64,000 nt of DNA from Phycisphaerales bacterium (GCA_020247305.1 JADCJE010000032.1:88108-152107); one strand, 5' to 3'; positions 2-26,051 are shown, counted from the first letter of the stretch. Translations and numbers: made by a program. Notes: a model not told the origin generated them from the sequence alone.

Positions 2-241
2 CAGGCCGGCAAGCCACAGCAATTGGAGTTGCGCATCGTGCCGCGCGGCGAGCCGTCGTCGCGGCAGTTCGCGTTCGTGGCCTCGTGGAACGGCGTGGTC
101 GTGCACCGGCGCGACATGCAGTCCCTCAGCGGCAACACCAACTCCGAGCTGAAGACCGTGCTCTTCGCGCTCGGGGACAAGGGCGACGAGGTGGACGTCG
201 CATTCGACGACTGGCGCCTGGAGCGCCGCAAGGAGCGCTGA
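2..241 (+). CDS. 3' end of a CDS truncated by the window edge; unknown function, ends 1 nt before the gspG-like start
   Basis: Frame is open from nt 2 with high GC3. Stop at 239-241, next ATG at 243. No recognisable motif. Confidence 0.5.
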   Translation, partial: QAGKPQQLELRIVPRGEPSSRQFAFVASWNGVVVHRRDMQSLSGNTNSELKTVLFALGDKGDEVDVAFDDWRLERRKER

Positions 242-242
242 G

Positions 243-881
243 ATGGAACGCCACGTCCGTGCCGCCGCGCGCGGCTTCACGCTGATCGAGCTGCTGATCG
301 TGATCTCGATCCTCGGCGTCCTGGCGGCCGTGCTGCTGCCGCAGGTCTTCGGCGCCAACGAAGCGGCGAACGCCGCCGCCACCGAGACCAACCTGCAGAT
401 GCTCGAAGGCGGCATCCAGCGCTTCCAGCGCAAGCACGGCATCTATCCGCCGGACGACCTGAAGGCGCCCGAGGGCATCGCCAAGGCGACCTGGAAGGGC
501 GACAATGGCGTCAACACCGGCATCGAGTCGCTGGTCTGCTTCCTCAGCCAGTCACAGCAGGACGGCCTCGACCTGGCGAGCCTCGCCGACCGCTTCGCCA
601 ACACGGACGGCGACGACCATGGCGTCGAGCTGCCGCTGCTCAAGCGCCGCGACCGCCTGGAGATCACCGACCACTGGCAGACGCCGATCGCATACTTCGG
701 CAAGTTCGGCCTCGAACGCGCGCAGGTGGTCAAGCCCGACCCCGAGTCCGACACCGTGCAGGTGAAGACGCGGCGGCGGCCCGATGGCGTGGTCTACGGG
801 GCCGGCAAGTTCCAACTGCTCAGCGCCGGGCCGGACCGGACGTTCAACACCGACGACGACCTCGTCTGGCCAGCCAACTGA
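243..881 (+). CDS. gspG: T2SS major pseudopilin GspG-like, with an internal insertion (212 aa)
   Basis: Prepilin signal AARG|FTLIELLIVISILGVLAAV with Glu+5. C-terminal GspG-like stretch DHWQTPIAYF...FQLLSAGPDRTFNTDDDLVW. Confidence 0.8.
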   Translation: MERHVRAAARGFTLIELLIVISILGVLAAVLLPQVFGANEAANAAATETNLQMLEGGIQRFQRKHGIYPPDDLKAPEGIAKATWKGDNGVNTGIESLVCFLSQSQQDGLDLASLADRFANTDGDDHGVELPLLKRRDRLEITDHWQTPIAYFGKFGLERAQVVKPDPESDTVQVKTRRRPDGVVYGAGKFQLLSAGPDRTFNTDDDLVWPAN

Positions 882-890
882 CCATCCGCG

Positions 891-1820
891 ATGCGCCGCG
901 CCGCCGGATTCACGCTGTTCGAACTGCTGGTGGTCATCGCCATCCTGTCGGTGCTCACCGGCTTGTCCGTCGGCTTCCTCGGCAAGACCGACCCGACGAT
1001 GGTCGCCAACGCCGTGCTCGGCGGCGAACTGCGCGCCGCGCAGTTGTCGGCGCGGGCCGAAGGCGTGCCGACGGAGGTTCTCTTGCAGCCGGGCACCGAC
1101 GAAGGTCCCGCCACCGTGCAGGCGCGGCTGCTGCGGCCGGTGGTCTCGTTCCGCTTCGAGCCGAATCAGGCCTACGAGGACGATTCGCTGCGACCGGTCC
1201 TCGGCGGCGAGGACGCCGCCGACGGGCGCTTCGGGCACGCGCGCCGGGTCGCTCCCGGCGGCAAGGGCGCCGTCGTGCGCTGGACGCCGACCGCGGCGCT
1301 GCTCGACCTGCGCGACGGCTTCGTCGTGCGCTTCGACCTGCTGCTCGACTCGGCCGGACCGGCGACCCTGCTGCGCTTGCCGCCGGCAATCGAGCTGACG
1401 CTCGACGCCGACGGCCGCCTGCGCGCACGGTTGCGCGTGGCGGGACTCGGTGGTGGCGACAACCGGCTCGTTCCGGTCGCGTCCTCTCAGCCGCTGCCGC
1501 GCGGACGGTGGTGCACGGTCGACCTCGGCTGCGACACCCGGCGCTGCTGGCTCGCGGTCGACGGCAGGGATGTCGGTGACGCCGTGTGCGACGGCGTGCC
1601 GCAGCAGGAAGACGACGCCACCTTCGAGTTCGCGCCGGCGGACGCGGCGTTCACGGGTCTCGTCGACGAACTGCGGTGGTTCGTCTACCAGTTCGGCTCG
1701 CCGCAGCAGCTGCCGATCGAGTGCGAGGCGCCGAAGGCGCTGCGCTTCTCGTTCGACGCGCGCGGCGAGGCGGTGGAACGGCACGCCGTGGCGTTCACGG
1801 TGCGGGAGGACGGCAAGTGA
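891..1820 (+). CDS. Prepilin-type N-terminal methylation-domain protein with a LamG/concanavalin-like C-terminal domain (minor pseudopilin)
   Basis: RRAAG|FTLFELLVVIAILSVL leader. C-terminal part resembles Laminin_G_3 (RGRWCTVDLGCD..CWLAVDGRDVG). Stop overlaps the next start (GTGA). Confidence 0.7.
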   Translation: MRRAAGFTLFELLVVIAILSVLTGLSVGFLGKTDPTMVANAVLGGELRAAQLSARAEGVPTEVLLQPGTDEGPATVQARLLRPVVSFRFEPNQAYEDDSLRPVLGGEDAADGRFGHARRVAPGGKGAVVRWTPTAALLDLRDGFVVRFDLLLDSAGPATLLRLPPAIELTLDADGRLRARLRVAGLGGGDNRLVPVASSQPLPRGRWCTVDLGCDTRRCWLAVDGRDVGDAVCDGVPQQEDDATFEFAPADAAFTGLVDELRWFVYQFGSPQQLPIECEAPKALRFSFDARGEAVERHAVAFTVREDGK

Positions 1821-4800
1821 GGATCGCCACCTGCGACCGCTCGGCGGGCGTGGCGCTGCTCGCCGTGCTCTTCGCGTTGACGTTGCTGATGCTGTTGGCG
1901 CTGCCGTTCGCGGTGTCGATGTCCGTCGGCGCCGACGCCGCCGTGCGCGAGGTCGAGGAGACGAGCGTCGTGCAGGCCGCCGCGAGCGCGCGCGAGCTGC
2001 TGCTGGCGGACGCGGCGTTGTCGCACCCGGCGATCGATCCGACGCCGATGTCCGACGGCCTCGAGGAGTTCCCCCAGGCGGTCGAACTGCCGAAGGCCTT
2101 CCAGGCGCTCGGCGAAGACGGTCGCGTCGTCTTCGGCGGCGGCGTCACCGACCTGCAGCGCCTGTTCGCGTTGGACGGCGCCTCGCCGCTGCTGTTCGCC
2201 AACGTGCTCGGTTCGACCACGCGGTTGCGCGAAGAGCTGCTGCCCGACGCGAACGAGATCGCCGTCGACGCCGCGGACGAGCTGCCGCCGACCGGCATGG
2301 TCTTCGTCGGCGGCGAACTGATCCGGTACGGCGCGCGCACGGCCAACGCGCTGCAGCAGCTCGAACGCGCGGTCGACGCGCCGGAGTTCGGCGACGGGCG
2401 CGAGCCGATTCCGGCCCAGTCGCTGGTGCTCGACTGGCGCTGCATCCAGGCCGCCAACTGGCCGAACCAGGGCTCGGATCCGACGCGGCGCACGCGCCAG
2501 CCGTTCCAGTCGGTCGGCGACCTGCTGGCCATCGAGCGCGCCGGGGCCGGCCCGTTCACGCCGGCGGAGATGGACCTTCTGCGCGCCAGCTTCACCACCG
2601 ACACGCAGGCGACGAGCGCGCCGACGTGGGGTCGTCCCGAGCGCGTCTTCGGCGCGCTGGTCGCTGGGGAATCGCGCCAGCTGATCGTCAAGTCGGCCTT
2701 GCACCTCGGCCCGGGCAGCACGGTCCGACTGCGCAACCTGCGCACCGGCGCGGTCGAACACGGCCTCGTCGTCGGCACGGCGACGGCCACCGGTCAGCAG
2801 GCCGTGCAGTTGCCGAGCACGTTCCTGCTGAACCTGCTGCACCGCGTGCTGCAGGACTTCCCGGCCGTCGACACCGTCGTCGAGCCGTTGATCCCGGCGC
2901 CGATCAACGTCAACACGGCGAGCGTCGAAGCCCTGACGGCGGTGTTCGCGCAACTGCGGCAGCCGCCGGTGGTACGACAGACGGAGTCGGGCGTGCAGCG
3001 TTCGACGCCGCCGATCTTCGCGCGCGCCGCCGCGCGGCAACTGGCGGAGGACATTGCCCTGCTGCGCGCCGCGTCGGACCGCCCGGGCACAGGCGCATTC
3101 ACCGGCTGGCAGGACTTTGTCGAGCGACTCTGGCGGCCGCGCCTCGAAGCCGCCGCCGCCCAGGATGACGTCGCGCTGCTGGTCAACATCTACCGCAACC
3201 TGCACACCGGCCGCGACACGGTGCTGGAGATGGGCACGGCGCCGTTCTGCTTCCAGTCAGGACCGTGGATGGCGTACCGCGCCGCCGCCAGCCGCACGCG
3301 CAGCGCGGTGGCGCCGGGTGTCGCCGCGCGCAATGAACGCACGGGCGTCGCGCTGGCCGTGCCGGGGTTCGCCATCGAACGCCGGTGGGCGACGCAGGAG
3401 CAGTTCGAGGACGCCCTGCAGCTCGACCGCCGCTCGCCGTTCTGGGCCACGAATCCCGTCAACCTCGGCGCGATCCAGCCGAACGCGCTGGGCGCCGATC
3501 CGGCGTCGCGGTCGGCGCCACACCTCCTGGCGGCGGCGTTCCCGAACCTGGGGTTTGGCCAGCTGCGCTTCCCGGCGCGCGACGACGTCGCGGCGGGCAT
3601 CCAACCGGCGCCGGCATCGGCCTTGCCCGGCAACTGGAACCGCAGCCCCGTGCTGCGCGTGCAGGAGTCCTTCCCGTTCGCGCAGGACGTACGCGGCCAC
3701 GACGTCAGCAAGCTCGGCGCATTGCGGCTCAACAACACAGGGCCGTCGCAGCCGCAGGGCCAGGGCGGCGCACCGCAGCAGCCGTCGCAGCGGGCGGTCA
3801 CCCAGCAGGGGTCCGGCAGGCACGACCAGATCTCGTTCCCGTTCAGCACGCCGGACAGCTTCCTCGGCAAGTTCGGCCTCGGCGCGTGGCTGGAGCCGCA
3901 GAACCTCGCCGCGGTGACGTTGTTCGAGCACGGCGACGGCAACGACCTGCGCAACCGCCTCGCCGTCGAAGTGCGCGACGGCAACCTGTTGCTCGAGTCG
4001 ATCGACGAAGCCGGCATCGACCCGAACCCGAGCGCGTCGCCGGCCGGCGTGCAGCGCACGGCGACGCAGGTGGTGTTGCCGCTCGCCGAGTTGGCGATGC
4101 CGGCCAACACGCCGCTGCACGTGTCGTTCCAGGCGGCCGGCGGCCGGCCGTCGGACCTCGCTCTGCACGTCGACGGCTTCCCGCGCGGCCGACCTCGCTT
4201 CCAGACGTACCTGACGGCGGCGGTGCCGGTGTTCGACCCGCAGCGCGGCAACAACCAGACGCTTCCGGGCATGGCCGGCAACGAGCGCTACCTCGACCTG
4301 CAGGTCGAGAGCACGGACGGCTTTCCGCCGGTCGGCCTGCTGCGCATCGGCGTCGAGTACTTCGAGTACACCAGCATCCGCGGCAACACGTTCCGCTGCC
4401 AGTTCAACGATTCGATGGGCGGTCGCGCGGCGCGCCAGCGCGGGCGCGAGATGCGGCCGGACATCCCGGTCGACGAGCAGGGCCGGCCGCGCGTCGACAT
4501 CAACAGTCCGGAGTTCGCCAACGTCAACCTCGACGTCTTCCCGGCGCACCCCGCCGGTTCGGTGGTCGAACTCGCCGGCTGGTCGCTGCCGCTCAGCGAG
4601 GACACGCCGATGATGGTCGGCAGGACGGCCCTCGACGGTTCGATCGGCGGTTGGGCGGTGGCGCGCGGGTACATCGACAACCCGCGCCCGATCACCATCC
4701 AGATCCCGATGGGGCCTTCGTTCCCGATCGGCGACGGCATCGACGAGAACTGGAACGGCACGCTGTTGCTCGCCGATCCCGTGCCGACCGGAAGGACCTA

Positions 4801-6997
4801 TCCGCCGCCGGCCGCACAGGAAGAGATCGTCAACGCGTTCCCGGCCACCGGCGGGTACGCGTTGATCGTCCAGGGCCTGCAGCAGTGGGACCGGACCCTG
4901 GCGACGACGTCCGCGTCGGCCACGTTCGGCGGCGTCGAGGTGATCCGGTACGCGGCGCGGCAAGGCAACCAGCTGACCGGGGTGCAGCGGGCGCAATCGG
5001 CGGCGATCCCGGGCCAGGACGGTCAGATCGCCATCGACCAGTTCGACGGCCGCCCGCGCCGGTTCGTCTGCAACTACGTCGACATCGGCCTGCCACAGGA
5101 ACCGGGCAGGACCTTCGACGACCTGCCGACCGAGATCGTCTTCGTGGTGCCGATCTCGCTGCCGGTGGCCAACACGCAGGTGCTGTGGGATCCGCAGGCG
5201 CGGCAGATGACCGAGTTCTGCCAGCTGCTGCCGACGGGCAACGCCGTCGACACCGAGTGGGTGCGCTACGACGTCATCGCCGAGCGTCGCCACATCGTGC
5301 GCGGCAACCGCGCCGCATGGGAAGCGCTGCGGTTCATCCTGACCAACCGCATCGGCGCCGCCCAGATCGACGTCGGCCCGCTTGGACCCAACAGCCAGCC
5401 GTCGGCGACGACGCCGCCTTGGCCCCAGGTCGTGCCGACTTCGGGCTACATCGGGTACGTGCCGCAGATGGAGAGCACGTGGCCGCAGATCCACGCGGCG
5501 CGGCGGGCGCTCGCCTTCCGCGGGGACCCGTTCACCGGCACGTCGTCGCATCCCCAGGCCAGCGCTGCGGTGCTGCCGTGCCACCGCATGCAGCTGTCGT
5601 GGGGCAATTTCGGCGTCTACACCGGACGCGCCGGCCGGCACGACCGCGTGGCGATGGTGCAGGGATCGACGGCCAGCGGCACGCAGCGTCCGCCGGTTGA
5701 ATGGCTGAGCGTCAACTGGGCCTGCCGGCGGTACGAAGCCGACAACCTGCAGCAGGGCCAGACCCCGCCGGAGCGCCTGGGTCCGTGGCCCTTCCAGCTG
5801 GTCGGCTTCACCGACCAGGTCACCAACGTCTACCTCGGACCGCCGCGCGGCACGCCGGTCTTCGAGCCGCGGCGCTTCGACCGGCTCGTCAAGTTCCCGA
5901 GCGGCGAACTGCCGGCGGCGTGGTGCCAGCAGCCCACGCTCGGCGCCGGCATCGGCAACGCGCAGCAGATGCAGGGCTACGTCGATGAGGTCGACCTGGT
6001 CCAGCACGCGCGCCCGACGCTGGTGCTCGACGAAGACTGCGCCGACGGCGCGCAGACCTTCCGGGTCGTGCCGACGATGCTCGTCGCCTCGTCGGGGCCG
6101 GTGTACTTCGCCAACGACATCACCCCGGCGCTGCCGCAGACCGGCGGGCTGGTGCAGATCGGCGGCGAAGTACTCGCCTACCAGACGCATGCCGACGGCA
6201 CCTTCCAGGTGGCGATCAACGGTCGCGGGCTGCTGAACACGCAGCCACGCAGCCACGCGCGAGGCAGCCGCGTGGAGTTCCTGTCGCACCGTTCGGCGGC
6301 GATCCTCGCCAGCGGCCTCGGCATCCGCGACAACACGCTGCCGCTGCAGGACCTCGGCGCCTTGTCGCCGCGCCAGGGCACCGTCCTGGTCGGCACGGAG
6401 TTGCTGCACTACAGCTGGATCCGCCGCAACGGCGACCAGGTGCAGCTGGAGATGCCGCGCCACTTCCCCGGGGAAGACGAGCCCGGTGGCGGCCAGCCGC
6501 GCGGCTTGTTCCGCGGGCGCTTTGGCACGATGCCGGCGACGGCAGGCGCCGGCCAGGCCGTGGTCGGCTTCCCGTTCCGCTACTGGGACCGGCAGGTCGA
6601 GCGCAGCGACGACCCGGAGCTCGCGTACTTCCAGGTGACCCACACCGAAGCGCCGGGCTTCTTCAAGTCGCTGCGCTGGCGGCAGGAGACGCTGGATCCG
6701 CGCGTCGACGTGGTCTGCCTCGCCCGCGTCGACGGCAAGCTGCCGTGGGAAGGCGCGCCGCTGCCGGCGGGCGGCTTCTGGGAGCTGCGCGGCGGCAGCG
6801 CTGACGCTCCGCCTCACCGCCTGATGCACCACGGCAGCCAGCTGGAGCTGCGCTTCCTCACGCGGTACCAGCCCGGCTGCGTCGATCTGGTGACCTACCG
6901 GGCGCATGGCTGGAAGACGACGGCGCGCATCGAGGACGTGCGTGTCGAGTACGAAGGCCAGTCGCGGGTGCTCGTCGAGGAGGTGACGGCGCGATGA
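1817..6997 (+). CDS. Giant GspK-like pseudopilin-family protein (~1726 aa)
   Basis: GTG at 1817 overlaps the upstream stop (GTGA). N-terminus RSAGVALLAVLFALTLLMLLALPF is GspK-like (hydrophobic helix, no Glu+5). PINVNTASVEALTAV helix-hairpin-helix signature at 2900-2941. High GC3 in this frame. Stop overlaps the next ATG (ATGA). Confidence 0.7.
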   Translation: MRIATCDRSAGVALLAVLFALTLLMLLALPFAVSMSVGADAAVREVEETSVVQAAASARELLLADAALSHPAIDPTPMSDGLEEFPQAVELPKAFQALGEDGRVVFGGGVTDLQRLFALDGASPLLFANVLGSTTRLREELLPDANEIAVDAADELPPTGMVFVGGELIRYGARTANALQQLERAVDAPEFGDGREPIPAQSLVLDWRCIQAANWPNQGSDPTRRTRQPFQSVGDLLAIERAGAGPFTPAEMDLLRASFTTDTQATSAPTWGRPERVFGALVAGESRQLIVKSALHLGPGSTVRLRNLRTGAVEHGLVVGTATATGQQAVQLPSTFLLNLLHRVLQDFPAVDTVVEPLIPAPINVNTASVEALTAVFAQLRQPPVVRQTESGVQRSTPPIFARAAARQLAEDIALLRAASDRPGTGAFTGWQDFVERLWRPRLEAAAAQDDVALLVNIYRNLHTGRDTVLEMGTAPFCFQSGPWMAYRAAASRTRSAVAPGVAARNERTGVALAVPGFAIERRWATQEQFEDALQLDRRSPFWATNPVNLGAIQPNALGADPASRSAPHLLAAAFPNLGFGQLRFPARDDVAAGIQPAPASALPGNWNRSPVLRVQESFPFAQDVRGHDVSKLGALRLNNTGPSQPQGQGGAPQQPSQRAVTQQGSGRHDQISFPFSTPDSFLGKFGLGAWLEPQNLAAVTLFEHGDGNDLRNRLAVEVRDGNLLLESIDEAGIDPNPSASPAGVQRTATQVVLPLAELAMPANTPLHVSFQAAGGRPSDLALHVDGFPRGRPRFQTYLTAAVPVFDPQRGNNQTLPGMAGNERYLDLQVESTDGFPPVGLLRIGVEYFEYTSIRGNTFRCQFNDSMGGRAARQRGREMRPDIPVDEQGRPRVDINSPEFANVNLDVFPAHPAGSVVELAGWSLPLSEDTPMMVGRTALDGSIGGWAVARGYIDNPRPITIQIPMGPSFPIGDGIDENWNGTLLLADPVPTGRTYPPPAAQEEIVNAFPATGGYALIVQGLQQWDRTLATTSASATFGGVEVIRYAARQGNQLTGVQRAQSAAIPGQDGQIAIDQFDGRPRRFVCNYVDIGLPQEPGRTFDDLPTEIVFVVPISLPVANTQVLWDPQARQMTEFCQLLPTGNAVDTEWVRYDVIAERRHIVRGNRAAWEALRFILTNRIGAAQIDVGPLGPNSQPSATTPPWPQVVPTSGYIGYVPQMESTWPQIHAARRALAFRGDPFTGTSSHPQASAAVLPCHRMQLSWGNFGVYTGRAGRHDRVAMVQGSTASGTQRPPVEWLSVNWACRRYEADNLQQGQTPPERLGPWPFQLVGFTDQVTNVYLGPPRGTPVFEPRRFDRLVKFPSGELPAAWCQQPTLGAGIGNAQQMQGYVDEVDLVQHARPTLVLDEDCADGAQTFRVVPTMLVASSGPVYFANDITPALPQTGGLVQIGGEVLAYQTHADGTFQVAINGRGLLNTQPRSHARGSRVEFLSHRSAAILASGLGIRDNTLPLQDLGALSPRQGTVLVGTELLHYSWIRRNGDQVQLEMPRHFPGEDEPGGGQPRGLFRGRFGTMPATAGAGQAVVGFPFRYWDRQVERSDDPELAYFQVTHTEAPGFFKSLRWRQETLDPRVDVVCLARVDGKLPWEGAPLPAGGFWELRGGSADAPPHRLMHHGSQLELRFLTRYQPGCVDLVTYRAHGWKTTARIEDVRVEYEGQSRVLVEEVTAR

Positions 6998-8199
6998 ATG
7001 TTCCTCTGCGAGCCCCTGCCGCCGGCTTCACGCTGATCGAACTGTTGGTGGTCATGGGCATCCTCACGGGCTTCCTGCTGATGCTGGCCCAACTCGTCGA
7101 TGGCGGCTTGCGGCTGTTCGGCGAGGGCGAACTCGGCCAGGCGTTGGCCGATCGGGCGAGCACGGCGCAGCGGCGGGTGACGGCCGAACTGTCGTTGCTG
7201 CGCGGCGCCGGCAGCCAGCGCGACGCCGCCCAGGTCGTCGACCGGCTCGTCGTGCAGGAACTGCCGCTCGGCCTGCCGCAGCGGCCCGAACGCGGCATCA
7301 GCAAGGGGCAGGTGCTGCGCGGCGCGGTCCGCCTGCCGCCCGATCGCGAACTGCCGCTGCTCGACGCCAAGATCGCGGCGGAACTGCTGCGCGACGATCC
7401 CAAGCTGACCGGCGAGGAACTCGACAAGCGCATCCGCGCCGCGCGCCAGGGCATGCCGCTGCGCGGCCACGGCAACCTGCTGCTGCTGCCGTGGCGCCAG
7501 GAAGGCAGCGACGAAGCCCTGCTCGAACTGCGCGCCGCGTGGCTGTTGCCGGGGCAGATCGTCCCGGTCGGCCCGGATCGCTTCGTCGACCCGTTCGATG
7601 TGCCGCTGCCGGGATCCCCGGACCTGCCGGGCCTCGCGGCCTGGACGCTGACGCAGCCGCTCGTCAGCGACCTCTTGCACGTGGAGTTCCAGTTGTGGGC
7701 GCAGGACACGCGCCAGTGGGCGCGCGACGACGGTCGCACGGGCGGGGGCGTCGCACTGCGCTGCTGGGACAGCGCCCGCGGCGGGTGGTTGGTCGACGCG
7801 GCGGCGGGGGGCGCGTTCCCGTTCGATCGCGGACCGGCCAGCGCCGCGGACGCGCGCGACGACGTCCACCCGCACGCGCTGCTCTGCCGGATCGTCGTGG
7901 CGCAACCGGCGGAGTACGCGCCCGAGGGCCTGCTCGCCGCCGACCTCGCCGTCGACGACACCGTCCTGCGCCTCTACGACGGCGATCGTTTCCCCGGTCC
8001 GGCCGATGGCGGTTGGTTGAAGATCCGCACGGAGTGGATCGCCTACGCCGAGCGCAGCGGTGACGAGTTGCGCGGCCTGCGGCGCGGCCTGCGCAACACG
8101 AGCGCCAAGGACCATGTCTCCGGCGCGCGTGTCCACGTCGGCCGCAGCGTCGAGTTCGTCGTGCCGGTGTTGCACGCGAAGGACGACTGGAATGGCTGA
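6994..8199 (+). CDS. Prepilin-type minor pseudopilin (GspJ-like position), 401 aa
   Basis: APAAG|FTLIELLVVMGILTGF leader. ATGA overlap with the upstream gene. C-terminal motif is shared with the giant protein. Confidence 0.7.
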   Translation: MNVPLRAPAAGFTLIELLVVMGILTGFLLMLAQLVDGGLRLFGEGELGQALADRASTAQRRVTAELSLLRGAGSQRDAAQVVDRLVVQELPLGLPQRPERGISKGQVLRGAVRLPPDRELPLLDAKIAAELLRDDPKLTGEELDKRIRAARQGMPLRGHGNLLLLPWRQEGSDEALLELRAAWLLPGQIVPVGPDRFVDPFDVPLPGSPDLPGLAAWTLTQPLVSDLLHVEFQLWAQDTRQWARDDGRTGGGVALRCWDSARGGWLVDAAAGGAFPFDRGPASAADARDDVHPHALLCRIVVAQPAEYAPEGLLAADLAVDDTVLRLYDGDRFPGPADGGWLKIRTEWIAYAERSGDELRGLRRGLRNTSAKDHVSGARVHVGRSVEFVVPVLHAKDDWNG

Positions 8200-8662
8200 C
8201 CCACGACGCAACGAAGCCGGCTTCACGCTCGCCGAGATGCTCGTGGCGCTCGGCATCCTGTTGTTCGGCGTGACGTCGCTGCTGGCGGCGATGGCGAGCA
8301 GCATCGGCCAACGCCGCAGTTCGGACGCGCGCCTGGAGACCACGGCGCTCGTGGAGCACGTCGTCCACCGTGCGATGCACGAGTGCGTCGCGCTGCGCGA
8401 CGGCAGTTCCTCGCCGGTCGACCTGGAGTTCCGCCCGCTCGTCGACCAGCCCTGGCCGGGGTTCCCCGGCCTGCGGTGGTCGGTGCGCGCGACGGTCGAC
8501 GAGAACCGCCCGACGGTGTGGCTGCTCCGCATCGAAGCCAAGTGGTTCGACGGCGGCGAGGAGATCGTTTCGGAGTACCTTCGGGTCGTGCCGCGGCAGG
8601 CGCCGCTGCGCGACCGGGTGTTGACCGCCCGCGGCGGGGCGGCGGAGACTACGGACAGGTGA
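8192..8662 (+). CDS. Prepilin-type minor pseudopilin (GspI-like), 156 aa
   Basis: ATG at 8192 lies 8 nt inside the upstream gene. RNEAG|FTLAEMLVALGILLFGV leader. Small size typical of GspI/H. Confidence 0.65.
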   Translation: MADPRRNEAGFTLAEMLVALGILLFGVTSLLAAMASSIGQRRSSDARLETTALVEHVVHRAMHECVALRDGSSSPVDLEFRPLVDQPWPGFPGLRWSVRATVDENRPTVWLLRIEAKWFDGGEEIVSEYLRVVPRQAPLRDRVLTARGGAAETTDR

Positions 8663-8667
8663 CGGCC

Positions 8668-10170
8668 ATGAATCGCATGATGCTCGCGTTCCTCCTCCTC
8701 GCCGCGGCGTTCCCGGCGGCCCTGGCGGCCCAGTCGGTGCAGCTCGCGGATGGCCGCGTCCTGCTGGCCGAGGTCGAGACCGGCAGCGTCACCGGCGAGG
8801 GTATGCGCGTCCGCCGGCTCGACAACGGCGGCGTCCTCGACCTGCGCTGGGACCACCTGACGCCCGCGAGCGCGATGGAGTGGAAGAAACGCTTCGACCT
8901 CGCGGGCGACGCGCAGGACGAGATCACCGTGCGCGCCGACGAGGTCACGTACGAGATCGGCGGCACGCGGCGCTCGGTCCTGGGCCGCATCGTCGACCAG
9001 ACCACCGACAGCGTCGTCGTCCAGCAGAAGGGCGTGCCGAGCACGATCAAGCGGCGCGACGTCGTCGGCGTGCGCAAGGTCGACGCGCCGGTCACGCAGG
9101 TGATGACGCGCGAGGAGTACTACGGCGAACTGCTGCAGCAGGCGCAGCCCGGCGCCGACGCCGACAAGCACCTGCTGGTCGCCGAGACCCTGATGAAGGT
9201 GCGCGACTACGACCGGGCCATCGAGCACGTCGAGAAGGCCAAGGCGGCCGGCAACAGCAAGAACCCGCCGCAGATCGACGCCATGCTCGGCAAGCTGCAG
9301 CGCTACAAGGAGGCGCAGAAGGAACTGAAGCTGCTGGAGGACATCCAGGCCGCTCGCAGCCGCGGCGGCGTCGCCGACTTCGAAAAGGGCGGCAAGCTGA
9401 TCGCGCAGTTCGAGAAGGATTTCCCGCAGACGAAGCTCAAGAGCGAGTTCGACGCCGAGAAGCGCCGGTTCGCCGAGGCGCGCACGCGCTTCCTGACCGG
9501 TCAGGTGGCCGAGAAGTTCCGCGACGGCGTGCGCGTGGTCGCCGACAAGGCCTGCGGCGACGCGGCGATGACGCTGCAGGCGGCGCGCGACTTCGCGACC
9601 GCCAAGATGAGCGACGAGATCTTCGCGCGCGTGGCGCAGCAACTCCGCCTGGACGTCGCCGAGGTCAAGACGCTCTGGGCCGCCCGCAAGGACAACTCCA
9701 TCGGCCGCCGCGTCGAGCACTACGGCTACGCGGTCGGCTCGTGGGTGCTCGGCGAGCAGGCCATCCTGAAGGACACGACCCAGGGCAAGGCCAACGCGGC
9801 GCAGAAGGCACGCGCCGGCGACAGCCCGGCCGCGGCGGGCGGCAACCCGCAACTGGATCGGCTGGCCAAGCTGCTGCGGCAGGCACAGGAGCGGCGGAAT
9901 GCCCAGCAGTCGCAGGGCGGCCAGGAGCGCGAGCAGACGGACGAGGACTGGTGGCGCGAGGCCGAGCGCGTCGACCGAGCCGGGTTTCTGCGCGCGTACT
10001 ACGCCGAATTCGGCGGCCAGATGGTCGTCACCTTCGCGACGGTCTCGCCGTGCATCAGCTGCAGCGGGGAAGGCACGGTGCCGGAGCTCGGCGGCGACGG
10101 TCGCATCGTGAGCAACAAGTGCTTCCTGTGCCACGGCACCAAGTGGCTGCGCAGCTTCAAGGCGTACTGA
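8668..10170 (+). CDS. Secreted TPR-like/coiled-coil protein with a C-terminal DnaJ-type CxxCxGxG zinc finger
   Basis: Signal peptide MNRMMLAFLLLAAAFPAALAAQS. CISCSGEG...CFLCHGTKW at 10051-10146. Only a 5-nt gap after the pseudopilin gene. Confidence 0.65.
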   Translation: MNRMMLAFLLLAAAFPAALAAQSVQLADGRVLLAEVETGSVTGEGMRVRRLDNGGVLDLRWDHLTPASAMEWKKRFDLAGDAQDEITVRADEVTYEIGGTRRSVLGRIVDQTTDSVVVQQKGVPSTIKRRDVVGVRKVDAPVTQVMTREEYYGELLQQAQPGADADKHLLVAETLMKVRDYDRAIEHVEKAKAAGNSKNPPQIDAMLGKLQRYKEAQKELKLLEDIQAARSRGGVADFEKGGKLIAQFEKDFPQTKLKSEFDAEKRRFAEARTRFLTGQVAEKFRDGVRVVADKACGDAAMTLQAARDFATAKMSDEIFARVAQQLRLDVAEVKTLWAARKDNSIGRRVEHYGYAVGSWVLGEQAILKDTTQGKANAAQKARAGDSPAAAGGNPQLDRLAKLLRQAQERRNAQQSQGGQEREQTDEDWWREAERVDRAGFLRAYYAEFGGQMVVTFATVSPCISCSGEGTVPELGGDGRIVSNKCFLCHGTKWLRSFKAY

Positions 10171-10175
10171 ACGCC

Positions 10176-11270
10176 GTGACTCGATCCTCGTTGCCAGGCC
10201 TGCTGGCCGGCACGAGCGTCCGGTCGGCGAGGCACAGTGCTGCCCCGGCTCGTATCGCCGGGTTGCTCGCGGCCGTTGCTGTGGTCGCGGCATGCAGCGG
10301 GCCACCCCGGGCGCCAACTGGGGCGATCCCGAGCCAGCCGAAGTCGGCCGCGTCGCCGCCGCCGAAGCTGGCGCCCGTGACCCCGCCGCGCGTCGACCCC
10401 AAGCTCGGACCGGACGTGCTGTTGCCCGCGCCGGCGGGCGGTGACGATGAAGTCGCGCGGGTCGGCGATCTGGTGCTGCGCCGCAGCCATGCCTTCGCGC
10501 GTCTGCTGACGGCCAGCCCCAAGATGGCGCTCTCCGCCGTCGACCTGCTCGTCTTCGACGCCCTGGTCGCACGGCACGCGCGTGAGTTCGGCATCCAGGT
10601 GGCGACGGCCAGGGTCGACGAACTGGCGGCGGCAGAGGAAACGACGCTGCGCCAGCAGTTGGCCGAGGAGCAACAGGGGCAGGTGGACTTCTCGGCGTAC
10701 CTCTTCCGGGTGTTCGGCATGGCCGAAGACGACTGGCGGCAGACGCTGCGGCTGCGCACGGCGCAGCGGCTGTACCAAGGGTACGTCCTGCGCTACCTGG
10801 CCTTGCGCGAGGATCGCGCCCAAGTCCGGTTCCTGGTGCACGCTGACCAGGTTCTGTGCCGGGAGGTCGCGACGAAGGTCCGCGCCGGAGCCGACTTCGC
10901 GACCCTGGCCAACAAGCACTCCGAGGATCCGTCGCGGCGGGACGGCGGTCTGCTGCCGCCGTTCGGGCGGGAGTTCCAGCACCCGGTTGCCAAGGTCGCA
11001 TTCGAGCTCGACCGCGGGGGCGTGAGCGAGCCGTTCGAGGCGGCTTGGGGCGATGGCAAACGGTGGTTCGTCGTGTTCTGCCTCGACCGCATGCCGGGGC
11101 GCGACGTGCCGTTCGACGCCGTCGCCGCCGAGATCGACGCCGGTCTCGCCGCTCGTCCGATCACGCCGCTCGAGACCACCGCGTACACGCTGCGCTGGCG
11201 CACCGGTCTCGATGGCGACCGGGACGCCGGCCAGACCGTCGGTCCTTCGCCGGCGCCGCAGTCGCGGTAG
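10176..11270 (+). CDS. PpiC/parvulin-type peptidyl-prolyl isomerase lipoprotein (SurA/PrsA-like)
   Basis: Lipobox-like AVVAAC|SG. Parvulin stretch ADFATLANKHSEDPSRRDGGLLPPFGR..VSEPFEAAWG..FVVFCLD. The start (GTG 10176) is uncertain. Confidence 0.65.
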   Translation: MTRSSLPGLLAGTSVRSARHSAAPARIAGLLAAVAVVAACSGPPRAPTGAIPSQPKSAASPPPKLAPVTPPRVDPKLGPDVLLPAPAGGDDEVARVGDLVLRRSHAFARLLTASPKMALSAVDLLVFDALVARHAREFGIQVATARVDELAAAEETTLRQQLAEEQQGQVDFSAYLFRVFGMAEDDWRQTLRLRTAQRLYQGYVLRYLALREDRAQVRFLVHADQVLCREVATKVRAGADFATLANKHSEDPSRRDGGLLPPFGREFQHPVAKVAFELDRGGVSEPFEAAWGDGKRWFVVFCLDRMPGRDVPFDAVAAEIDAGLAARPITPLETTAYTLRWRTGLDGDRDAGQTVGPSPAPQSR

Positions 11271-11377: not shown

Positions 11378-12340
11378 ATGGACGACATCACGCGTGAGTT
11401 CCCTGCCGACACCACGCCGACGCCGTCTTCCGGAGAACGCGGTCAGGCGTCCTCCGGCAAGGGCCCGGAGGAAGTGCAGCGATTCGAACGCGGCGAGGTG
11501 GCGGCAGACCTCGTCGTGCGCGACCGGTTGTCAGCGTCGGATCCGACGCTGCGACCGCTCGATCCCGAACCCGGTGAAACAGTCGCTGGCGCGCGCGATC
11601 GCAGCGAAGGCGTCGATGACGTCTCGTATGACGCGGCGCCTGCCGGCGACGCGATCGCCGAACCTGCCGCCGCCGTCGAGCCGTCGGTGACGCCGGTCGA
11701 CGACGACAGCGTCGCGGCGGACGCCGCCGCGCGCGCCGTCGAGGACGAGGCCAGCACGTTGTCGGTCGAAGACGACCTCGGTGATGCGGAAGGCCTGCCG
11801 CCGGTGCCCGAACTCGCCGACGCCGCCGCGGTCGCGCGCATGGTGTTCGTGCTGATGCTGTCCTCGCGCGAAGGTCTGTCGCTGCTGCGTCTGGCGCAGG
11901 CGTGCAACACGACGCAGAAGCTGGTCGAGGAGGCGCTCGTGCGGCTGCGCGAGCAGTTCCAGCAGGCCGGCTTGCCCGTCGAACTCGCGCGCACCGGCGA
12001 CACGGTGAAGTGGATGTCGGGCAGCGAGACCTTCCCGTACCTGCAGCGCCTGCGCGGCGTGAAGAAGCTGGAGCGGCTCTCGCCGGCCGCACTGGAGACC
12101 CTCGCGGTCATCGCGTACCGCCAGCCGGTCATGCGCAGCGAGATCGAAGCGATCCGCGGCGTGAAGGCCGGCCCGATGCTGCGCACGCTGCTGCACCACA
12201 AGCTGGTCAAGGTGACGGGACGCGCCGACGTGCCCGGTCGCCCGTTGCAGTACGGCACCACGCCGCAGTTCCTCGAGCGCTTCGGCATCGCCTCCCTGCA
12301 GGAGCTGCCGAGCATCAAGGAGTGGAAGAGCCTCGGCTGA
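11378..12340 (+). CDS. scpB: Segregation and condensation protein B with a long acidic N-terminal extension
   Basis: LSPAALETLAVIAYRQPVMRSEIEAIRGV...VKVTGRADVPGRPLQYGTTPQFLERFGI is a typical ScpB winged-helix core. Confidence 0.85.
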   Translation: MDDITREFPADTTPTPSSGERGQASSGKGPEEVQRFERGEVAADLVVRDRLSASDPTLRPLDPEPGETVAGARDRSEGVDDVSYDAAPAGDAIAEPAAAVEPSVTPVDDDSVAADAAARAVEDEASTLSVEDDLGDAEGLPPVPELADAAAVARMVFVLMLSSREGLSLLRLAQACNTTQKLVEEALVRLREQFQQAGLPVELARTGDTVKWMSGSETFPYLQRLRGVKKLERLSPAALETLAVIAYRQPVMRSEIEAIRGVKAGPMLRTLLHHKLVKVTGRADVPGRPLQYGTTPQFLERFGIASLQELPSIKEWKSLG

Positions 12341-12395: not shown

Positions 12396-12473
12396 GTCCC
12401 GGTCGTCTAGTCCGGCCTAGGACCCTAGATTTTCATTCTAGTAACACGGGTTCGAATCCCGTCCGGGATACCA
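12396..12473 (+). tRNA. tRNA-Glu (anticodon TTC), CCA encoded
   Basis: Manual cloverleaf. Acceptor GTCCCGG/CCGGGAT, anticodon stem CTAGA/TCTAG with loop TTTTCAT, T-arm ACGGG-TTCGAAT-CCCGT, then A-CCA. Confidence 0.9.
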
Positions 12474-22454: not shown

Positions 22455-25400
22455 TCACCGAAGATTTCGATAGACCGAAATCGAGTGATCCGGCTCGATG
22501 ACCCAGAGTTCATCGGCGTTGGCAAGCACCCTTGCCTTCTTGCTGCCTTCGAGACGGTATTGCACCTCGCCCGTCTCCTGCGAGTGAACCATCGGCCCCG
22601 TCGCGGAGGGGACGACCAGGCGTTGGCCGTGGCGCACGACGGCGCCAACGTGCTCGCCCTCGGTAGCCTGCGTAGCTGCGACCTTGGCGCCGCTCGAACG
22701 CTGCAGTTTGGTCAACCCGGAGCGCAGGGCCTGCCAGACGTGGTCGCCGACCACGATCGGCGTGCCCAGCGGTTCGCCGCCCAGCTCGACGTCCCAGTTG
22801 GTCGCGCCGGAAGCGAGGCCGATCGAGGCCAGCCGACCGCGGTCTGTGCACACGATCAGGTCGCCAGCGTCCTGGACGAAGCCCAAGACCTCGGCGTCGC
22901 CGATGCGTCGGTCGAGCGTCCGCTTGCCGTCGGCCGCGTGGCGACGCAGTTGCCCCTTGCCGCTCAGCGTCGTGACGCCGCCGTCCGCGTCGGTCCAGAA
23001 GCCGGCGATCGAATCGTCAGCGGTGAACCGCCGCTGCACCTTGCCGTCGTCACCGAGGAACACGACCGCCCCGGACGTGGTGGCGGCGACTAGCCCACCG
23101 GCGACCGACTTGGGAGCAAGGTCCATCGGCAGATCGGCCGCCGTCCACGCGATGGCTCCAGTTGCCAGGTCTACGGCACGCAGGTCGCCATCGACGGAAC
23201 CGATGATGGCGCGCGAACCGACGATGACGGGGCGCGTCAGGAAGCCGGAGAGATCCTCCGTCCGTCGGCTCCACAACGGCACGCCGTCCTTGCCCATCAT
23301 GGCAACCGTGCCGGCGCGATCCACCACGAGGACGCCCGCGGCGGTCGCGACTGGCGGCATCTCCACGGCGCTGGCGAGCTTGCGCGCCGACTCCGGTTGC
23401 AACCGCAGGTCGAACGAGAGCACTGCCTTGTCGTCGCCGGACACCGAGACTTTCGCGCCGGCGAAGCCGGCGAGTTCCACCCGGACCTCCGAAGTGTTTG
23501 CCGGGCTGCGCTGCAACAGGACCGGCGTGACGCCGGCGTCCGCGCCATCGAGCCGCACACGGGCGCCGAGCGGCCGCGTCGCGATCCGCAAAGGCAGGCG
23601 GACGATCCGTTCGAATCCGATCTCCGGGAACGTGTCGCACAGCGAACGCATGTGCCTCTTCGCCGTGTCGAAGTCGCCCGCCTTGCTCGCCGCCACCTGC
23701 TGATCGAGCAGTTCGGTGATCGCGCGGAGTCTGGCGATGCGTTCGCGGAAGTGCTTCAACAGCGAGTTGTCGGCCGACGAGTGCTGTTCGAGCTCGCTGT
23801 AGTCGGCGAGCGCGCCGACGAAGTCGTTGGCAGCCTCGCGCTGGACTGCGCGCTGGAACAGCGGGTCGAGGCGCCGCTGCTGTTCGTTGCGGGCCATCGC
23901 CGCGCCGTACGCGGCTGTCAGCGTCTCCGCCTTGCGGAAGGACTCGCGCATCGCCCCCTCGCTCTGGGCGAGGTGCTTCTGCAGATCGGCCGGCAAGTAG
24001 GCGATCTCCTCCTTGCCGGCGACGACCGCCTCGAACTCCTTGAACGCCTGGATCCACGCTACGTCTACGGTCTTCGCCAGCTTCGCTTGCGCGGCGACGA
24101 GGTCGTTGCGGTCGATGAGCTGTTCGGGCAGCGGCAAGGTCTGCTGTTGGAGGTTCCGGGCGATGTCGCCGAGTCGGACGGTAAAGGCCCGCAGCCGGCG
24201 ATCCGCGGCTTCGATCGTGGCGACCCGACGGTCCTCCGCCGCGGCGAGACGTTGATAGACCTTGACCGCTTCGTCGACCTTGCCGCCTTCGAGCGCCTCG
24301 GCCGCGCGCGCAAGTTCGGCGACCAGCTCTTCGTTGCGTTGCTTGTGGCGCCGGGACGACTCCTGCGCCTTTGCGAACGAGAGTTGCGTCCGGAGGTCGG
24401 TGATGCCGTCGACGTCGCCGAGTTGCGCGGTCCATTCGGCGAGGCGGCTCACCGCGTCGTCGAATTGGCGCTTGGCGATCAGCTGCCCGACCTCCGCGCG
24501 CGCTTCCTCGAGACTCTGCAGGTCGGCGAAGTGGCTCCAGAACCACATGCCGACGCCGATGGTGCCGAGCCCGAGGGCGGCGGCGATGCCGACGCGGGCG
24601 ATGCGCGCTCCCCGTGTCCGCGTGCGCTGCTTCAGCAGCTTGGCGATGTCCTTGCGGTTGCGGTCGAGGCGCAGCAGATGCGCGTAGGCGCTGTTGGCCT
24701 GGCTGGTCTCTCCCAGGGCGTCGTGGTGCTCGGCGAGCTCCTTGAGCACGGCCACGGCGCCGGGGATGTCCTTGGCCTTCTGGCGGGCGCGCGCCTCGCG
24801 TAGCAGGATCGCCGGCCGCATCGTGTGCGTCCGCCTCGCGTCCTCGACGATCTCGAGGGCGGTGCCAGTGCGTCCTTCCGTGGTCAGGGCATCGAGCAGT
24901 TCGAGCGTGCACTTCTCCAGCTCGGGCGAGTCCGCCGGGCTGTGTACGAGCAGGATCGTGCGCAGGTAGCTGAGCGTGCTGACGTCATGCGGATCGAGTT
25001 CCTTGGCGCGACGCGCCATGTGGAGCGAGGTCTCGCCGTCTTCCTGACGCTGTGCCGCCTCCAGCAGCATCGCGCTGGCGATCTTCCGCTCGCCGGCGAC
25101 GTCGAGGCATTCCGCTGCCGCACGGACGACGTCGACCGAGCGGTCGTCCGGCCGCGCGATCAACGTGCGAATGGTCATCAGCGCGCGCTTGCCGTTGCCG
25201 CCGTCGGCGAGCCGCTGGGCGACGGCCACGAGCCCCTCGTCGTCGGGGTTGCGCAGCCATCCCGCCTTCACGAGATCGCGTGCGGCCCTCGCGCCGGCGA
25301 ACATGCCCGTCGCGCAGCGCTCCGTGAGTTCGCGGTAGCTGGTGTGCCCGTCGACGCCCCGCAGCAGCTCGGCTCGTGCCGCATCCAGCCCCGTGCCGTC

Positions 25401-26051
25401 CATGGTCTCGCGCGTCCGCTGCGGCACCTCGTCGAGCGACCCGATGGCGGCCAGGATCGTCTCCCACTCGTCCGACCGCCGGGCGACCTCCAGCAGGAGG
25501 CTGTTGATGTCGTACTCGAAGCAGCTGTCGAACAGCTTGGCGGTGTCCGCCTGCGGGGCGCCCTTCCACAATTCGAACGCGCCGTGGCGCCAAGTGAAGA
25601 GGGCGTAGACGTCTTCTGCCGCCTGCTCCTCCAGCAACGCCTCGATGTGGTCGTGGGTGCAGTGCCCGCCTTCCACGAGCAGGACGCCCAGCGGGCGCTT
25701 GTCCTTGCGCTGCTCGATGAGCACGGCGCGCAGGGTCTCGATCGTGACGACGCCGGCGTTGACGAGGCGTTGGCCGATGCGCCGCGCCAGGACGCGCTGC
25801 GGCACGTGCACGCGGATGCGGCCGTCCTTGCAGTAGACGTGGCGGTCCTCGAGGGGGTTGCGGATCCGCATCGTCCCCTCCATCTTCGTGGTCGCGAGCG
25901 TCTGCAGCACATCCGCCAGGTGGATCTGCTCCAGGTCGCCCTGCATCATCACCGTCTGCGGTTCGGCCTCCGCAGGGGCTTGCTCGTTCGACGCCTCGGC
26001 GAGGAGGAAGTCGACCTCTGCATCACTCAGGACTTCGGAACGTGGCGCCAT
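22455..26051 (-). CDS. Large single-pass membrane protein: DUF4388, MshEN (T2SSE_N)-like, TPR, TM helix, coiled coil, PEGA, PQQ-like beta-propeller
   Basis: QGDLEQIHLADVLQTL (DUF4388-like). Tandem MshEN motifs at 25623-25781. TM IARVGIAAALGLGTIGVGMWFW at 24537-24602. PEGA-like ARVRLDGADAGVTPVLL. Repeated LRAVDLATGAIAW-type blades. The start may instead be the internal MMQ at about 25949. Confidence 0.8.
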   Translation of the reverse strand: MAPRSEVLSDAEVDFLLAEASNEQAPAEAEPQTVMMQGDLEQIHLADVLQTLATTKMEGTMRIRNPLEDRHVYCKDGRIRVHVPQRVLARRIGQRLVNAGVVTIETLRAVLIEQRKDKRPLGVLLVEGGHCTHDHIEALLEEQAAEDVYALFTWRHGAFELWKGAPQADTAKLFDSCFEYDINSLLLEVARRSDEWETILAAIGSLDEVPQRTRETMDGTGLDAARAELLRGVDGHTSYRELTERCATGMFAGARAARDLVKAGWLRNPDDEGLVAVAQRLADGGNGKRALMTIRTLIARPDDRSVDVVRAAAECLDVAGERKIASAMLLEAAQRQEDGETSLHMARRAKELDPHDVSTLSYLRTILLVHSPADSPELEKCTLELLDALTTEGRTGTALEIVEDARRTHTMRPAILLREARARQKAKDIPGAVAVLKELAEHHDALGETSQANSAYAHLLRLDRNRKDIAKLLKQRTRTRGARIARVGIAAALGLGTIGVGMWFWSHFADLQSLEEARAEVGQLIAKRQFDDAVSRLAEWTAQLGDVDGITDLRTQLSFAKAQESSRRHKQRNEELVAELARAAEALEGGKVDEAVKVYQRLAAAEDRRVATIEAADRRLRAFTVRLGDIARNLQQQTLPLPEQLIDRNDLVAAQAKLAKTVDVAWIQAFKEFEAVVAGKEEIAYLPADLQKHLAQSEGAMRESFRKAETLTAAYGAAMARNEQQRRLDPLFQRAVQREAANDFVGALADYSELEQHSSADNSLLKHFRERIARLRAITELLDQQVAASKAGDFDTAKRHMRSLCDTFPEIGFERIVRLPLRIATRPLGARVRLDGADAGVTPVLLQRSPANTSEVRVELAGFAGAKVSVSGDDKAVLSFDLRLQPESARKLASAVEMPPVATAAGVLVVDRAGTVAMMGKDGVPLWSRRTEDLSGFLTRPVIVGSRAIIGSVDGDLRAVDLATGAIAWTAADLPMDLAPKSVAGGLVAATTSGAVVFLGDDGKVQRRFTADDSIAGFWTDADGGVTTLSGKGQLRRHAADGKRTLDRRIGDAEVLGFVQDAGDLIVCTDRGRLASIGLASGATNWDVELGGEPLGTPIVVGDHVWQALRSGLTKLQRSSGAKVAATQATEGEHVGAVVRHGQRLVVPSATGPMVHSQETGEVQYRLEGSKKARVLANADELWVIEPDHSISVYRNLR

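Follow-up and report, generated by a model that had tools for sequence, protein, structure and literature searches.

The window analysed in this study is a stretch of 64,000 nucleotides (nt) from a Phycisphaerales bacterium (GCA_020247305.1 JADCJE010000032.1:88108-152107), which carries an operon of pilin-type genes at its 5'-end. Five consecutive genes on the plus strand, spanning positions 243 to 8662, encode proteins with prepilin-type or GspK-type N-termini and are designated, in this order, G, H, K, J and I (Table 1). Translations and junction sequences confirmed the positions of these genes given in a first-pass annotation of the window as well as the product sizes of 212, 309, 1726, 401 and 156 amino acids (aa), respectively. 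The Pfam model N_methyl scored above its gathering score in all four proteins with an FTLxE leader (G, H, J and I), and the leaders are kept in about 65 orthologues per pilin-type gene. The G+C content of the window is 71% and therefore entails many long chance open reading frames (ORFs). In the frames of the five pilin-type genes the G+C content at third codon positions (GC3) is about 0.9, which is the expected coding signature.

The stop codon TGA of the upstream gene ends at position 241 and the ATG of G lies at 243. G and H are separated by 9 nt, H and K overlap in a GTGA and K and J in an ATGA, J and I overlap by 8 nt, and gaps of 5 nt each precede the genes of a 500-aa protein and of a peptidyl-prolyl isomerase. 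These junctions agree with the earlier description of a chain of genes coupled by 4- to 8-nt overlaps or 1- to 9-nt gaps. The overlaps recur across related loci, with median junctions of -4 (H/K), -4 (K/J) and -8 (J/I) and with overlapping genes in 72-90% of these loci. A scan for promoters and terminators was uninformative, since no signal exceeded the shuffled expectation.

The operon does not start at position 243. Bases 2 to 241 are the end of a gene encoding a TPR protein, and three more genes precede the TPR gene. The operon has 11 genes, of which the window contains the 3' two-thirds. The full arrangement in homologue loci consists of rsmE on the minus strand followed by 12 plus-strand genes, which encode an FHA protein, a PilM-like protein, a protein of about 270 aa, the TPR protein of about 900 aa, G, H, K, J, I, the 500-aa protein, the isomerase, and ScpB.

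Table 1. Features of the operon and its 3' boundary in the window (slashes mark predicted leader cleavage)
Feature	Position (nt)	Strand	Basis
3' end (79 codons) of the ~900-aa TPR gene, fourth gene of the operon	2-241	+	contigs with identical G protein
G, GspG-like major pseudopilin, 212 aa	243-881	+	leader RG/FTLIEL, N_methyl 7.4e-8
H, GspH-like modular pseudopilin with ConA/LamG-like module, 309 aa	891-1820	+	leader AG/FTLFEL, N_methyl 3.2e-7
K, giant GspK-like pseudopilin, 1726 aa	1817-6997	+	GTG start, homologues, GspK model matches
K, aa 1-67, leader of the GspK type with N-terminal helix, SAG/VALLAVLFALTLL, Glu at +5 lacking	1817-2017	+	read from sequence
K, module copy 1, aa 150-215	2264-2461	+	motif scan
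K, 'EPLIPAPINVNTAS..L' segment, aa 337-384, helix-hairpin-helix-like part of GspK	2825-2968	+	profile match
K, C-terminal beta-rich head, aa 661-1726 (1,066 aa)	3797-6994	+	AlphaFold2 model
K, LamG/CBM-like jelly roll in head, about aa 666-814	3812-4258	+	Foldseek local matches
K, module copy, aa 830-898	4304-4510	+	motif scan
K, module copy, aa 1030-1089	4904-5083	+	motif scan
K, module copy, aa 1438-1500	6128-6316	+	motif scan
K, module copy, aa 1513-1580	6353-6556	+	motif scan
J, J-position pseudopilin, 401 aa	6994-8199	+	leader AG/FTLIEL, N_methyl 1.3e-4
J, copy of the giant's repeated module, aa 336-389	7999-8160	+	module HMMs
I, GspI-like minor pseudopilin, 156 aa	8192-8662	+	leader AG/FTLAEM, N_methyl 2.7e-6
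Exported 500-aa protein: signal peptide, one TPR unit, zinc-finger-like motif	8668-10170	+	scans, alignment
PpiC-type peptidyl-prolyl isomerase, last operon gene, start codon uncertain	10176-11270	+	Rotamase match
scpB, 3' boundary marker, counted outside the system	11378-12340	+	SMC_ScpB in orthologous loci
tRNA-Glu(ttc)	12396-12473		follows scpB

The giant K protein and the other pilin-type subunits

The giant K ORF encodes a real, length-conserved protein. Independent assemblies contain 109 full-length homologues of 1,712-1,775 aa with 37-85% identity, nearly all from Planctomycetota metagenome-assembled genomes (MAGs); those that are named are all called 'hypothetical protein', the designation of the giant in every source naming it except for one distant relative labelled PulG. 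An exhaustive HMMER search with the C-terminal 1,066 aa retrieved 489 representatives of clusters at 50% identity, 181 of them below 1e-30, and most full-length members of these clusters have 1,590-1,850 aa. It had to be considered that the 1726-aa ORF is an artefact, either of genes fused by sequencing errors or of a chance ORF in DNA with 71% G+C. High-GC DNA yields many long spurious ORFs, and the ORF is split in two related loci (L061 and L075). This reading is refuted by the homologues, by the clusters and by confident AlphaFold2 models of both protein halves, the GC3 of the ORF being 0.91, and we assign it practically no probability. The possibility raised in the first-pass annotation that sequencing errors affect the large ORF is ruled out by the same 109 homologues and 489 clusters. 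In the MAG loci L075 (9983-13607) and L061 the giant ORF is found in two or three pieces, representing either assembly frameshifts or pseudogenes.

The N-terminus of K (SAG/VALLAVLFAL) is without Glu at +5 and thus of the GspK type. All 28 scanned homologues weakly matched the T2SS_GspK model NF037980, with a best E-value of 6.7e-7 and with scores of 12-28 bits against a cut-off of 130. Two co-linear GspK segments were matched in the giant family. Residues 10-119 of the giant correspond to model positions 2-103, comprising the N-terminal helix, and residues 357-421 of orthologues correspond to positions 209-263 with the 'NVNTAS' segment (2.5e-5). The latter region, via aa 337-384, also accounted for the sole match of the giant family in profile searches of the PDB (XcpX/GspK 5vtm_X, E 0.19). 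A Pfam scan of the giant gave no family match.

AlphaFold2 models of both halves were built from an alignment of 62 sequences. The N-terminal half (aa 1-660; pLDDT 81.5, pTM 0.80) shows one pilin-like helix of about 60 residues (aa 8-67) and helical inserts, whereas the C-terminal half (aa 661-1726; mean pLDDT 88, pTM 0.84) is compact and almost all-beta. In Foldseek searches of the PDB, neither half had a relative over its whole structure. Local matches of the C-terminal half were limited to LamG, CBM40 and laminin-LG domains (probability about 0.97, 110-125 columns), and no PilY1/PilC protein was among its top 50 PDB matches. Against viral predicted structures many phage tail and fibre proteins were matched, all with TM values of 0.12 or less, and therefore the head has no global relative among viral structures. 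As judged from the models, the head made up of the C-terminal 1,066 aa is new, and its LamG/CBM-like domain is the only recognisable part. High-probability local matches of the N-terminal model were phage tailspikes and depolymerases (7w1c, 4y9v, 4ru4), V-ATPase B and IF2, all of them proteins containing small beta-barrels, and these matches presumably belong to a repeated module. This module, 'G.E.I.Y...gN.L.gl.RG', has about 50-65 aa and occurs in at least five copies in the giant. Hidden Markov models (HMMs) built per copy detect other copies, e.g. R1 and R3 at 1.5e-6 and 7.6e-7.

Invariant motifs of the head include FRGDP.TGTSSH (nt 5519-5557), VKFPSGELP (nt 5879-5905) and the C-terminal '..VTAR' (nt 6983-6994). 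In a distant relative (L085:10001-16129) the H-like and K-like genes form one frame of 2042 aa with the GspK-type helix (ERG/VALMAVIAVLMAL) located internally at about aa 333, either by true fusion or by loss of a stop codon.

The major subunit G matched the GspG model TIGR01710 at 1.7e-13 over positions 1-62, with 50.8 bits against a cut-off of 88.85. In a PDB profile search its helix matched GspG (5wda, 2.7e-13) and its residues 188-212 weakly matched the GspG C-terminus. An insert of about 110 aa in this subunit carries invariant Asn, Asp and Glu residues. Invariant in the insert (window positions 513-680) are N91, G93, E95, N120, D122, D124, E140, D143 and W145; such residues might bind a metal ion (Ca2+) at a site other than the calcium loop of classical GspG.

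Orthologues of H matched the GspH model over positions 2-67 at 1.1e-8, which extends past the leader motif, and scored 22-35 bits against a cut-off of 80. The previous LamG label of this protein needs qualification: Laminin_G_3 remains below threshold in the H protein of the window (E 0.0018) but is strong (E <= 1e-5) in the precomputed Pfam table for a distant orthologue in locus L084. When the LamG-like modules of H and K were compared as possible paralogues, they matched each other weakly (hhalign probability 38%, E 3.4e-4).

The J-position protein carries a copy of the giant's repeated module, which the module HMMs matched at 1.8e-8 and 2.1e-7. Its former designation as J-like agrees with position and size, but GspJ models were weakly matched by only 5-7 of 38 orthologues; the GspJ equivalog gave E 0.02 or weaker in 5 of the 38, far below its cut-off of 64.85 bits. 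The model Verru_Chthon C (TIGR02599) was matched by 25 of the 38, with a best E-value of 1.2e-8. A profile search with the J family did not lead to Verru_Chthon C, the best 120 of 199 matches all being members of the same close family. The I-like protein matched GspI (1.2e-4) and ComGE (1.7e-6), its 22.5 bits being below the GspI cut-off of 44.35. One I-like orthologue matched XpsI over nearly its full length (model positions 3-117 of 132, E 6.7e-5), and PilV was matched by one orthologue at 4.5e-5. For both the J-position and the I-like family, PDB profile searches matched the leader helix alone. PGAP labels orthologues as 'type II secretion system protein' or 'GspJ family'.

None of the curated equivalog cut-offs (TIGR01710, TIGR01708, TIGR01707, TIGR01711, NF037980) was reached by G, H, K, J or I. 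The five proteins are therefore distant relatives, not members, of these families. At the level of profile matches G, H, K and I are related to GspG, GspH, GspK and GspI, whereas the fifth protein occupies the GspJ position.

Conserved gene order and accessory genes

When one genome per GTDB species was scanned, 76 loci were obtained; almost all carry the label of Planctomycetota MAGs and none is from a cultured species. Using phmmer on six-frame ORFs, all 12 families were found in the same order in each of the 40 loci holding all 12, and the core from G to the 500-aa protein was kept in 55 of 55. The non-canonical order that had been noted in the window, now specified as G-H-K-J-I, is thus a fixed feature of the 55 loci. 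The same cluster surrounds three homologues that are 29-35% identical to the giant of the window over the C-terminal region.

Inspection of the upstream region, which the first-pass annotation had left unseen, in loci of homologues on long contigs revealed the four genes preceding G: those of an FHA-transmembrane (TM) protein, a PilM-PilN fusion and a PilO-like protein, and most of the TPR gene, lie 5' of the window. The PilM-like protein of 540 aa was recognised as a PilM-PilN fusion in a PDB profile search by matches to the M. xanthus proteins PilM (7e-23, aa 41-342) and PilN (5e-5, aa 347-467), and it matched Pfam PilM_2 at 6.9e-17. The protein of about 270 aa is bitopic with one N-terminal TM segment, a topology like that of PilO/GspM; a PDB profile search gave no match and no relatives were detectable. 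The FHA protein has the layout FHA-TM-periplasmic domain, like YscD of the type III secretion system. On contigs carrying an identical G protein the TPR ORF extends to more than 693 aa. Its orthologues have 878-949 aa, TPR matches and an N-terminal hydrophobic segment (membrane anchor), and 2 of 10 members weakly matched a ConA-like domain at the C-terminus.

Two genes follow the pilin-type genes. The 500-aa protein, encoded directly after I in 55 of 55 loci, has a signal-like N-terminus, a TPR at aa 149-198 and a CxxCxGxG...CxxCxG motif at its C-terminus (nt 10051-10131), in which C462, C465, G469, C485 and C488 are invariant in 38 orthologues. We propose a role as folding or assembly factor. 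A DnaJ-type zinc-finger motif is found here in an unusual location, on a protein with a signal peptide. The isomerase matched Rotamase (4.1e-9), Rotamase_3 (8.6e-9) and weakly SurA_N_2; it is probably a lipoprotein, as suggested by the sequence 'VVAAC', and in 80% of loci its gene either overlaps with or directly adjoins the one before it.

That scpB follows the operon, as previously noted, was verified by SMC_ScpB matches in orthologous loci. In the window it starts 107 nt after the isomerase gene; the median gap across loci is 46 nt, with 10 nt or less in 6% of them. At L084, a distant locus, there is an 8-nt overlap of scpB with the isomerase gene, and scpB may therefore sometimes be co-transcribed.

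The absence of ATPase, platform and secretin genes in or 3' of the operon, reported before, was also seen here. Such genes were not found among the main ORFs of the window that were scanned (a few shorter ORFs were unscanned), and the main ORFs between 12 and 64 kb encode housekeeping functions (recA, alaS, plsX, fabH, fabF, gcvP and others). A search for Walker A, Asp box, Walker B and His box of the GspE/PilB type in any frame of the window and 86 loci, about 1.7 Mb, was negative, neither secretin nor T2SSE nor T2SSF appeared in the Pfam tables of five representative loci, and the 10 kb flanking the giant gene on each side were free of GspC, D, E, F and O in roughly 60 genomes. As no such gene was recovered from the window or the loci, motor, channel and prepilin peptidase are unlinked in the genomes seen.

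Further genes of the window include one for a DUF4388, TPR, PEGA and PQQ/BamB-like beta-propeller protein of 1198 aa (22455-26051, minus strand) and one for an FG-GAP/ASPIC (UnbV) repeat protein of 1245 aa (43226-46963, minus strand), the latter adjoined by the gene of a 522-aa beta-propeller protein (41513-43081). Two ORFs of 938 and 805 aa (30248-33064 and 51305-53722, both plus strand) with coding-type GC3 had no Pfam match at E <= 0.001.

The unlinked motor bears on a reading in which no filament is formed. The pilin-type N-termini would then only anchor or assemble a complex of binding proteins at the surface or in the periplasm, as in the archaeal 'bindosome', whose sugar-binding proteins carry class III signal peptides. 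ConA/LamG-like modules on two proteins, with the TPR protein as a possible third, and the compact, globular head of K (pTM 0.84) are compatible with such a complex. A GspG-like major subunit together with a full and tightly coupled H/K/J/I set rather indicates a polymerising filament with a priming complex, and a PilM-PilN base is present. We thus regard a filament-free complex as improbable.

Relation to described type IV filaments

Taken together, the genes make up the set of a type IV filament, comprising a major subunit, four minor subunits including one of the K-type, and a PilM-PilN base with a PilO-like protein. Like the pseudopilus of the type II secretion system (T2SS), it has one major and four minor subunits, all with prepilin-type leaders, and its K-type subunit shares with GspK the lack of Glu5 and the 'NVNTA' segment. 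HMM matches to GspG, H, K and I are weak and consistent. In contrast to the T2SS, the genes are ordered G-H-K-J-I instead of G-H-I-J-K and the proteins are 1.5- to 5.6-fold larger than the NCBIfam models of GspG, H, K, J and I (134, 169, 307, 192 and 101 positions). K carries the 1,066-aa head that has no whole-structure match, the locus lacks linked gspC, D, E, F, L, M and O, and the PilM-PilN fusion takes the place of GspL.

Another reading is a dedicated T2SS pseudopilus that stays periplasmic, with the giant K as an enlarged piston head or substrate-recruiting cap, the LamG-like module binding cargo and the chaperones serving cargo or cap. In most members G, H, K and I match T2SS models over type IVa pilus (T4aP) minor-pilin models, the PGAP names of orthologues point in the same direction, and a head so strongly conserved is in keeping with a fixed partner in the machine. 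This possibility is nevertheless unlikely given a base that is T4aP-like (PilM-PilN) and not of the GspL type, the order K-J-I, not I-J-K, the lack of any GspC, D, E, F or O gene in the 10-kb flanks of the giant gene in those roughly 60 genomes, and the lack of a linked candidate cargo gene.

The tip complex of the T2SS is GspK-GspI-GspJ, and the priming complex of T4aP is PilVWX-PilY1. The operon resembles the T4aP set FimU-PilV-PilW-PilX plus PilY1 in combining four minor pilins with a bulky, presumably tip-located protein that exceeds 1,000 aa and in harbouring PilM and PilN homologues; motor genes elsewhere in the genome are normal for T4aP. It differs from T4aP in that the bulky protein is itself a pilin-type K/PilX-like subunit, whereas PilY1 is a separate non-pilin protein, in that no beta-propeller was found in the giant by Pfam or among the top 50 Foldseek matches, in its GspG-like major subunit, and in that PilP and PilQ are not encoded in the locus.

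The first-pass annotation had itself allowed for ordinary minor pilins of a described type IVa system, which would make the operon one of the FimU-PilV-PilW-PilX-PilY1 type. The four minor pilins plus one very large protein, the PilM and PilN homology and the single I-like orthologue matching PilV (4.5e-5) speak for it. This assignment is very improbable, since the large protein is pilin-type with a GspK-type N-terminus and shows neither a PilY1 beta-propeller nor any Pfam or PDB fold match, the major subunit is GspG-like, pilB, pilC, pilP and pilQ are unlinked, no curated family cut-off was reached, and neither a described system that agrees in gene set and order nor a PilY1-type head domain was found. 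The system would work like a T2SS pseudopilus or a T4aP minor-pilin set but is a member of neither, because cut-offs, gene order and linkage do not agree.

A giant protein with a GspK-type N-terminus beside three pseudopilin-like genes has a named, uncharacterised precedent in the Verru_Chthon cassette, whose proteins A-D are represented by the NCBIfam/TIGRFAM models TIGR02600, 02598, 02599 and 02596. Its very large protein (model of 1,296 positions) has a GspK-type N-terminal helix and adjoins three pseudopilin-like proteins of sizes similar to those found here (models of 151, 361 and 196 positions). Verru_Chthon A was matched by some giants, with a best E-value of 9.4e-6, and B and D were weakly matched. 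The best scores were 23.8 bits against a cut-off of 332.3 for A, 20.3 against 51.4 for B and 25.5 against 70 for D; for C, the examined member gave 19 bits against 256.5. In the members examined, matches to A and C stop within the first 40-62 model positions, and the protein bodies are unrelated by HMM. Verru_Chthon cassettes are present in many copies per genome, whereas the locus described here is single-copy, belongs to the core genome and includes base and chaperone genes. Membership of the giant in Verru_Chthon A was rejected because its matches cover 54-62 of 1,296 model positions. Despite the similar layout the operon thus does not belong to this cassette, the similarity to the A and C models being limited to 40-62 N-terminal positions. 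Our literature search retrieved nothing on this locus or on the Verru_Chthon cassette, and no described system of the same architecture.

Modular pilins consist of an N-terminal pilin module and an extra module not specific to filament biology (PMC8179133). They display lectin or adhesin modules at filament tips, as exemplified by PilB (vWA module) and PilC (ConA-like lectin module) of S. sanguinis, CofB of enterotoxigenic Escherichia coli (ETEC) and ComZ of Thermus, and GspK itself has been treated as a modular pilin (PMC8179133, PMC9934059). With a functional module grafted onto a pilin module the H-like and K-like proteins fall under this definition, and H resembles S. sanguinis PilC in being a minor pilin with a ConA/LamG-like lectin module. 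In a published survey the largest modular pilin has 860 aa (PMC8179133), whereas K, with 1,726 aa, is twice this size and mostly without known domain signature. Furthermore, at least two modular subunits occur in one filament here.

Crateriform structures of Planctopirus and Gemmata bear dextran-binding, pili-like fibres of 12 nm diameter whose subunits were not identified in that paper (PMC5394234). Similar to these polysaccharide-binding fibres of the same phylum, the operon encodes a fibre with lectin-like modules. In contrast, the crateriform fibres belong to cultured Planctomycetia, whereas our genome scan returned no cultured species, and they are wider than typical type IV filaments. 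No evidence links the two.

Proposed function and significance

In our judgement the locus is probably best explained as a type IV filament module, consisting of base and fibre with a giant modular tip subunit, which is driven in trans in an uncultured Planctomycetota lineage. The initial proposal of a specialised tip/fibre module rather than a textbook T2SS pseudopilus is retained as the best reading because of the distant family matches, the order G-H-K-J-I, the lack of a described equivalent and the exclusion of an artefactual giant, but it has to be extended, as the operon also encodes an inner-membrane base and two likely folding factors.

By analogy with T2SS and T4aP, a prepilin peptidase encoded elsewhere would cleave the five leaders. 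The K-like, J-position and I-like proteins would form an initiation or tip complex that primes the filament, and the module common to K and J may help K-J docking. H would connect this complex to the G-like fibre. Alignment of the filament with components supplied in trans, namely an ATPase, a platform protein and an outer-membrane channel, may be the task of the base of PilM-PilN, PilO-like, FHA and TPR proteins. The beta-rich K head of about 115 kDa would be displayed at the filament tip, where it and the ConA-like module of H may bind a ligand, most likely a glycan; glycan binding is suggested by the ConA/LamG-like modules on H and K, as in S. sanguinis PilC, a lectin pilin. Folding or holding the giant in the periplasm may be aided by the zinc-finger protein and the isomerase, both plausible folding factors.

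Several observations weigh against this explanation. The family matches are all far below curated cut-offs, the J-like label is weak and rests mainly on position and size, and GspK is absent from the top 50 PDB matches of the N-terminal model in Foldseek. ATPase, platform, secretin and prepilin peptidase were not seen in the window or at the loci. Conservation of the head is unusually strong, and many of its Arg, Asp, His and Glu residues are invariant, a pattern that seems to fit an enzyme's catalytic site or a fixed interface or partner better than a fast-evolving adhesin. The locus also behaves as a single-copy, core-genome feature, which sits badly with a simple adhesin. A folded head of about 115 kDa is, by our estimate, near the size limit of the secretin chamber. 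Both the tip location of the head and the glycan ligand are proposed by analogy.

A more far-reaching interpretation, which we put forward tentatively and do not expect to hold, is a distinct lineage-wide subclass of type IV filaments with its own base (YscD-like FHA-TM protein, PilM-PilN, TPR protein) and a GspK-like tip of about 190 kDa with a new-fold head. As the locus is single-copy, core-genome and invariant, it may also build an envelope organelle specific to Planctomycetota, e.g. glycan-capturing fibres of the crateriform type. In a further version of this interpretation, the filament tip would deliver the conserved head as an enzyme and not as an adhesin.

Priming of filament assembly and the choice of filament function are generally ascribed to minor pilins and pseudopilins. 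The operon does not represent a new principle, and its function remains putative. The giant is mostly annotated as 'hypothetical protein' and the small subunits bear generic names such as 'type II secretion system protein'. The findings bear on annotation and would be clearly noteworthy to pilus and secretion specialists. The giant would be an extreme priming subunit, exceeding the usual size more than fivefold and bearing a well-folded head that has no whole-structure match, and it is conserved in hundreds of clusters mostly from uncultured environmental bacteria. Such a giant tip would probe how large a tip cargo a machine of this type can carry. A filament with base and putative chaperones and without a motor is, in addition, a tidy case for modules sharing motors in trans. 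Finally, Planctomycetota have an unusual envelope and unexplained polysaccharide-binding fibres, and for these, with no link as yet, a conserved filament with lectin modules is a concrete candidate.

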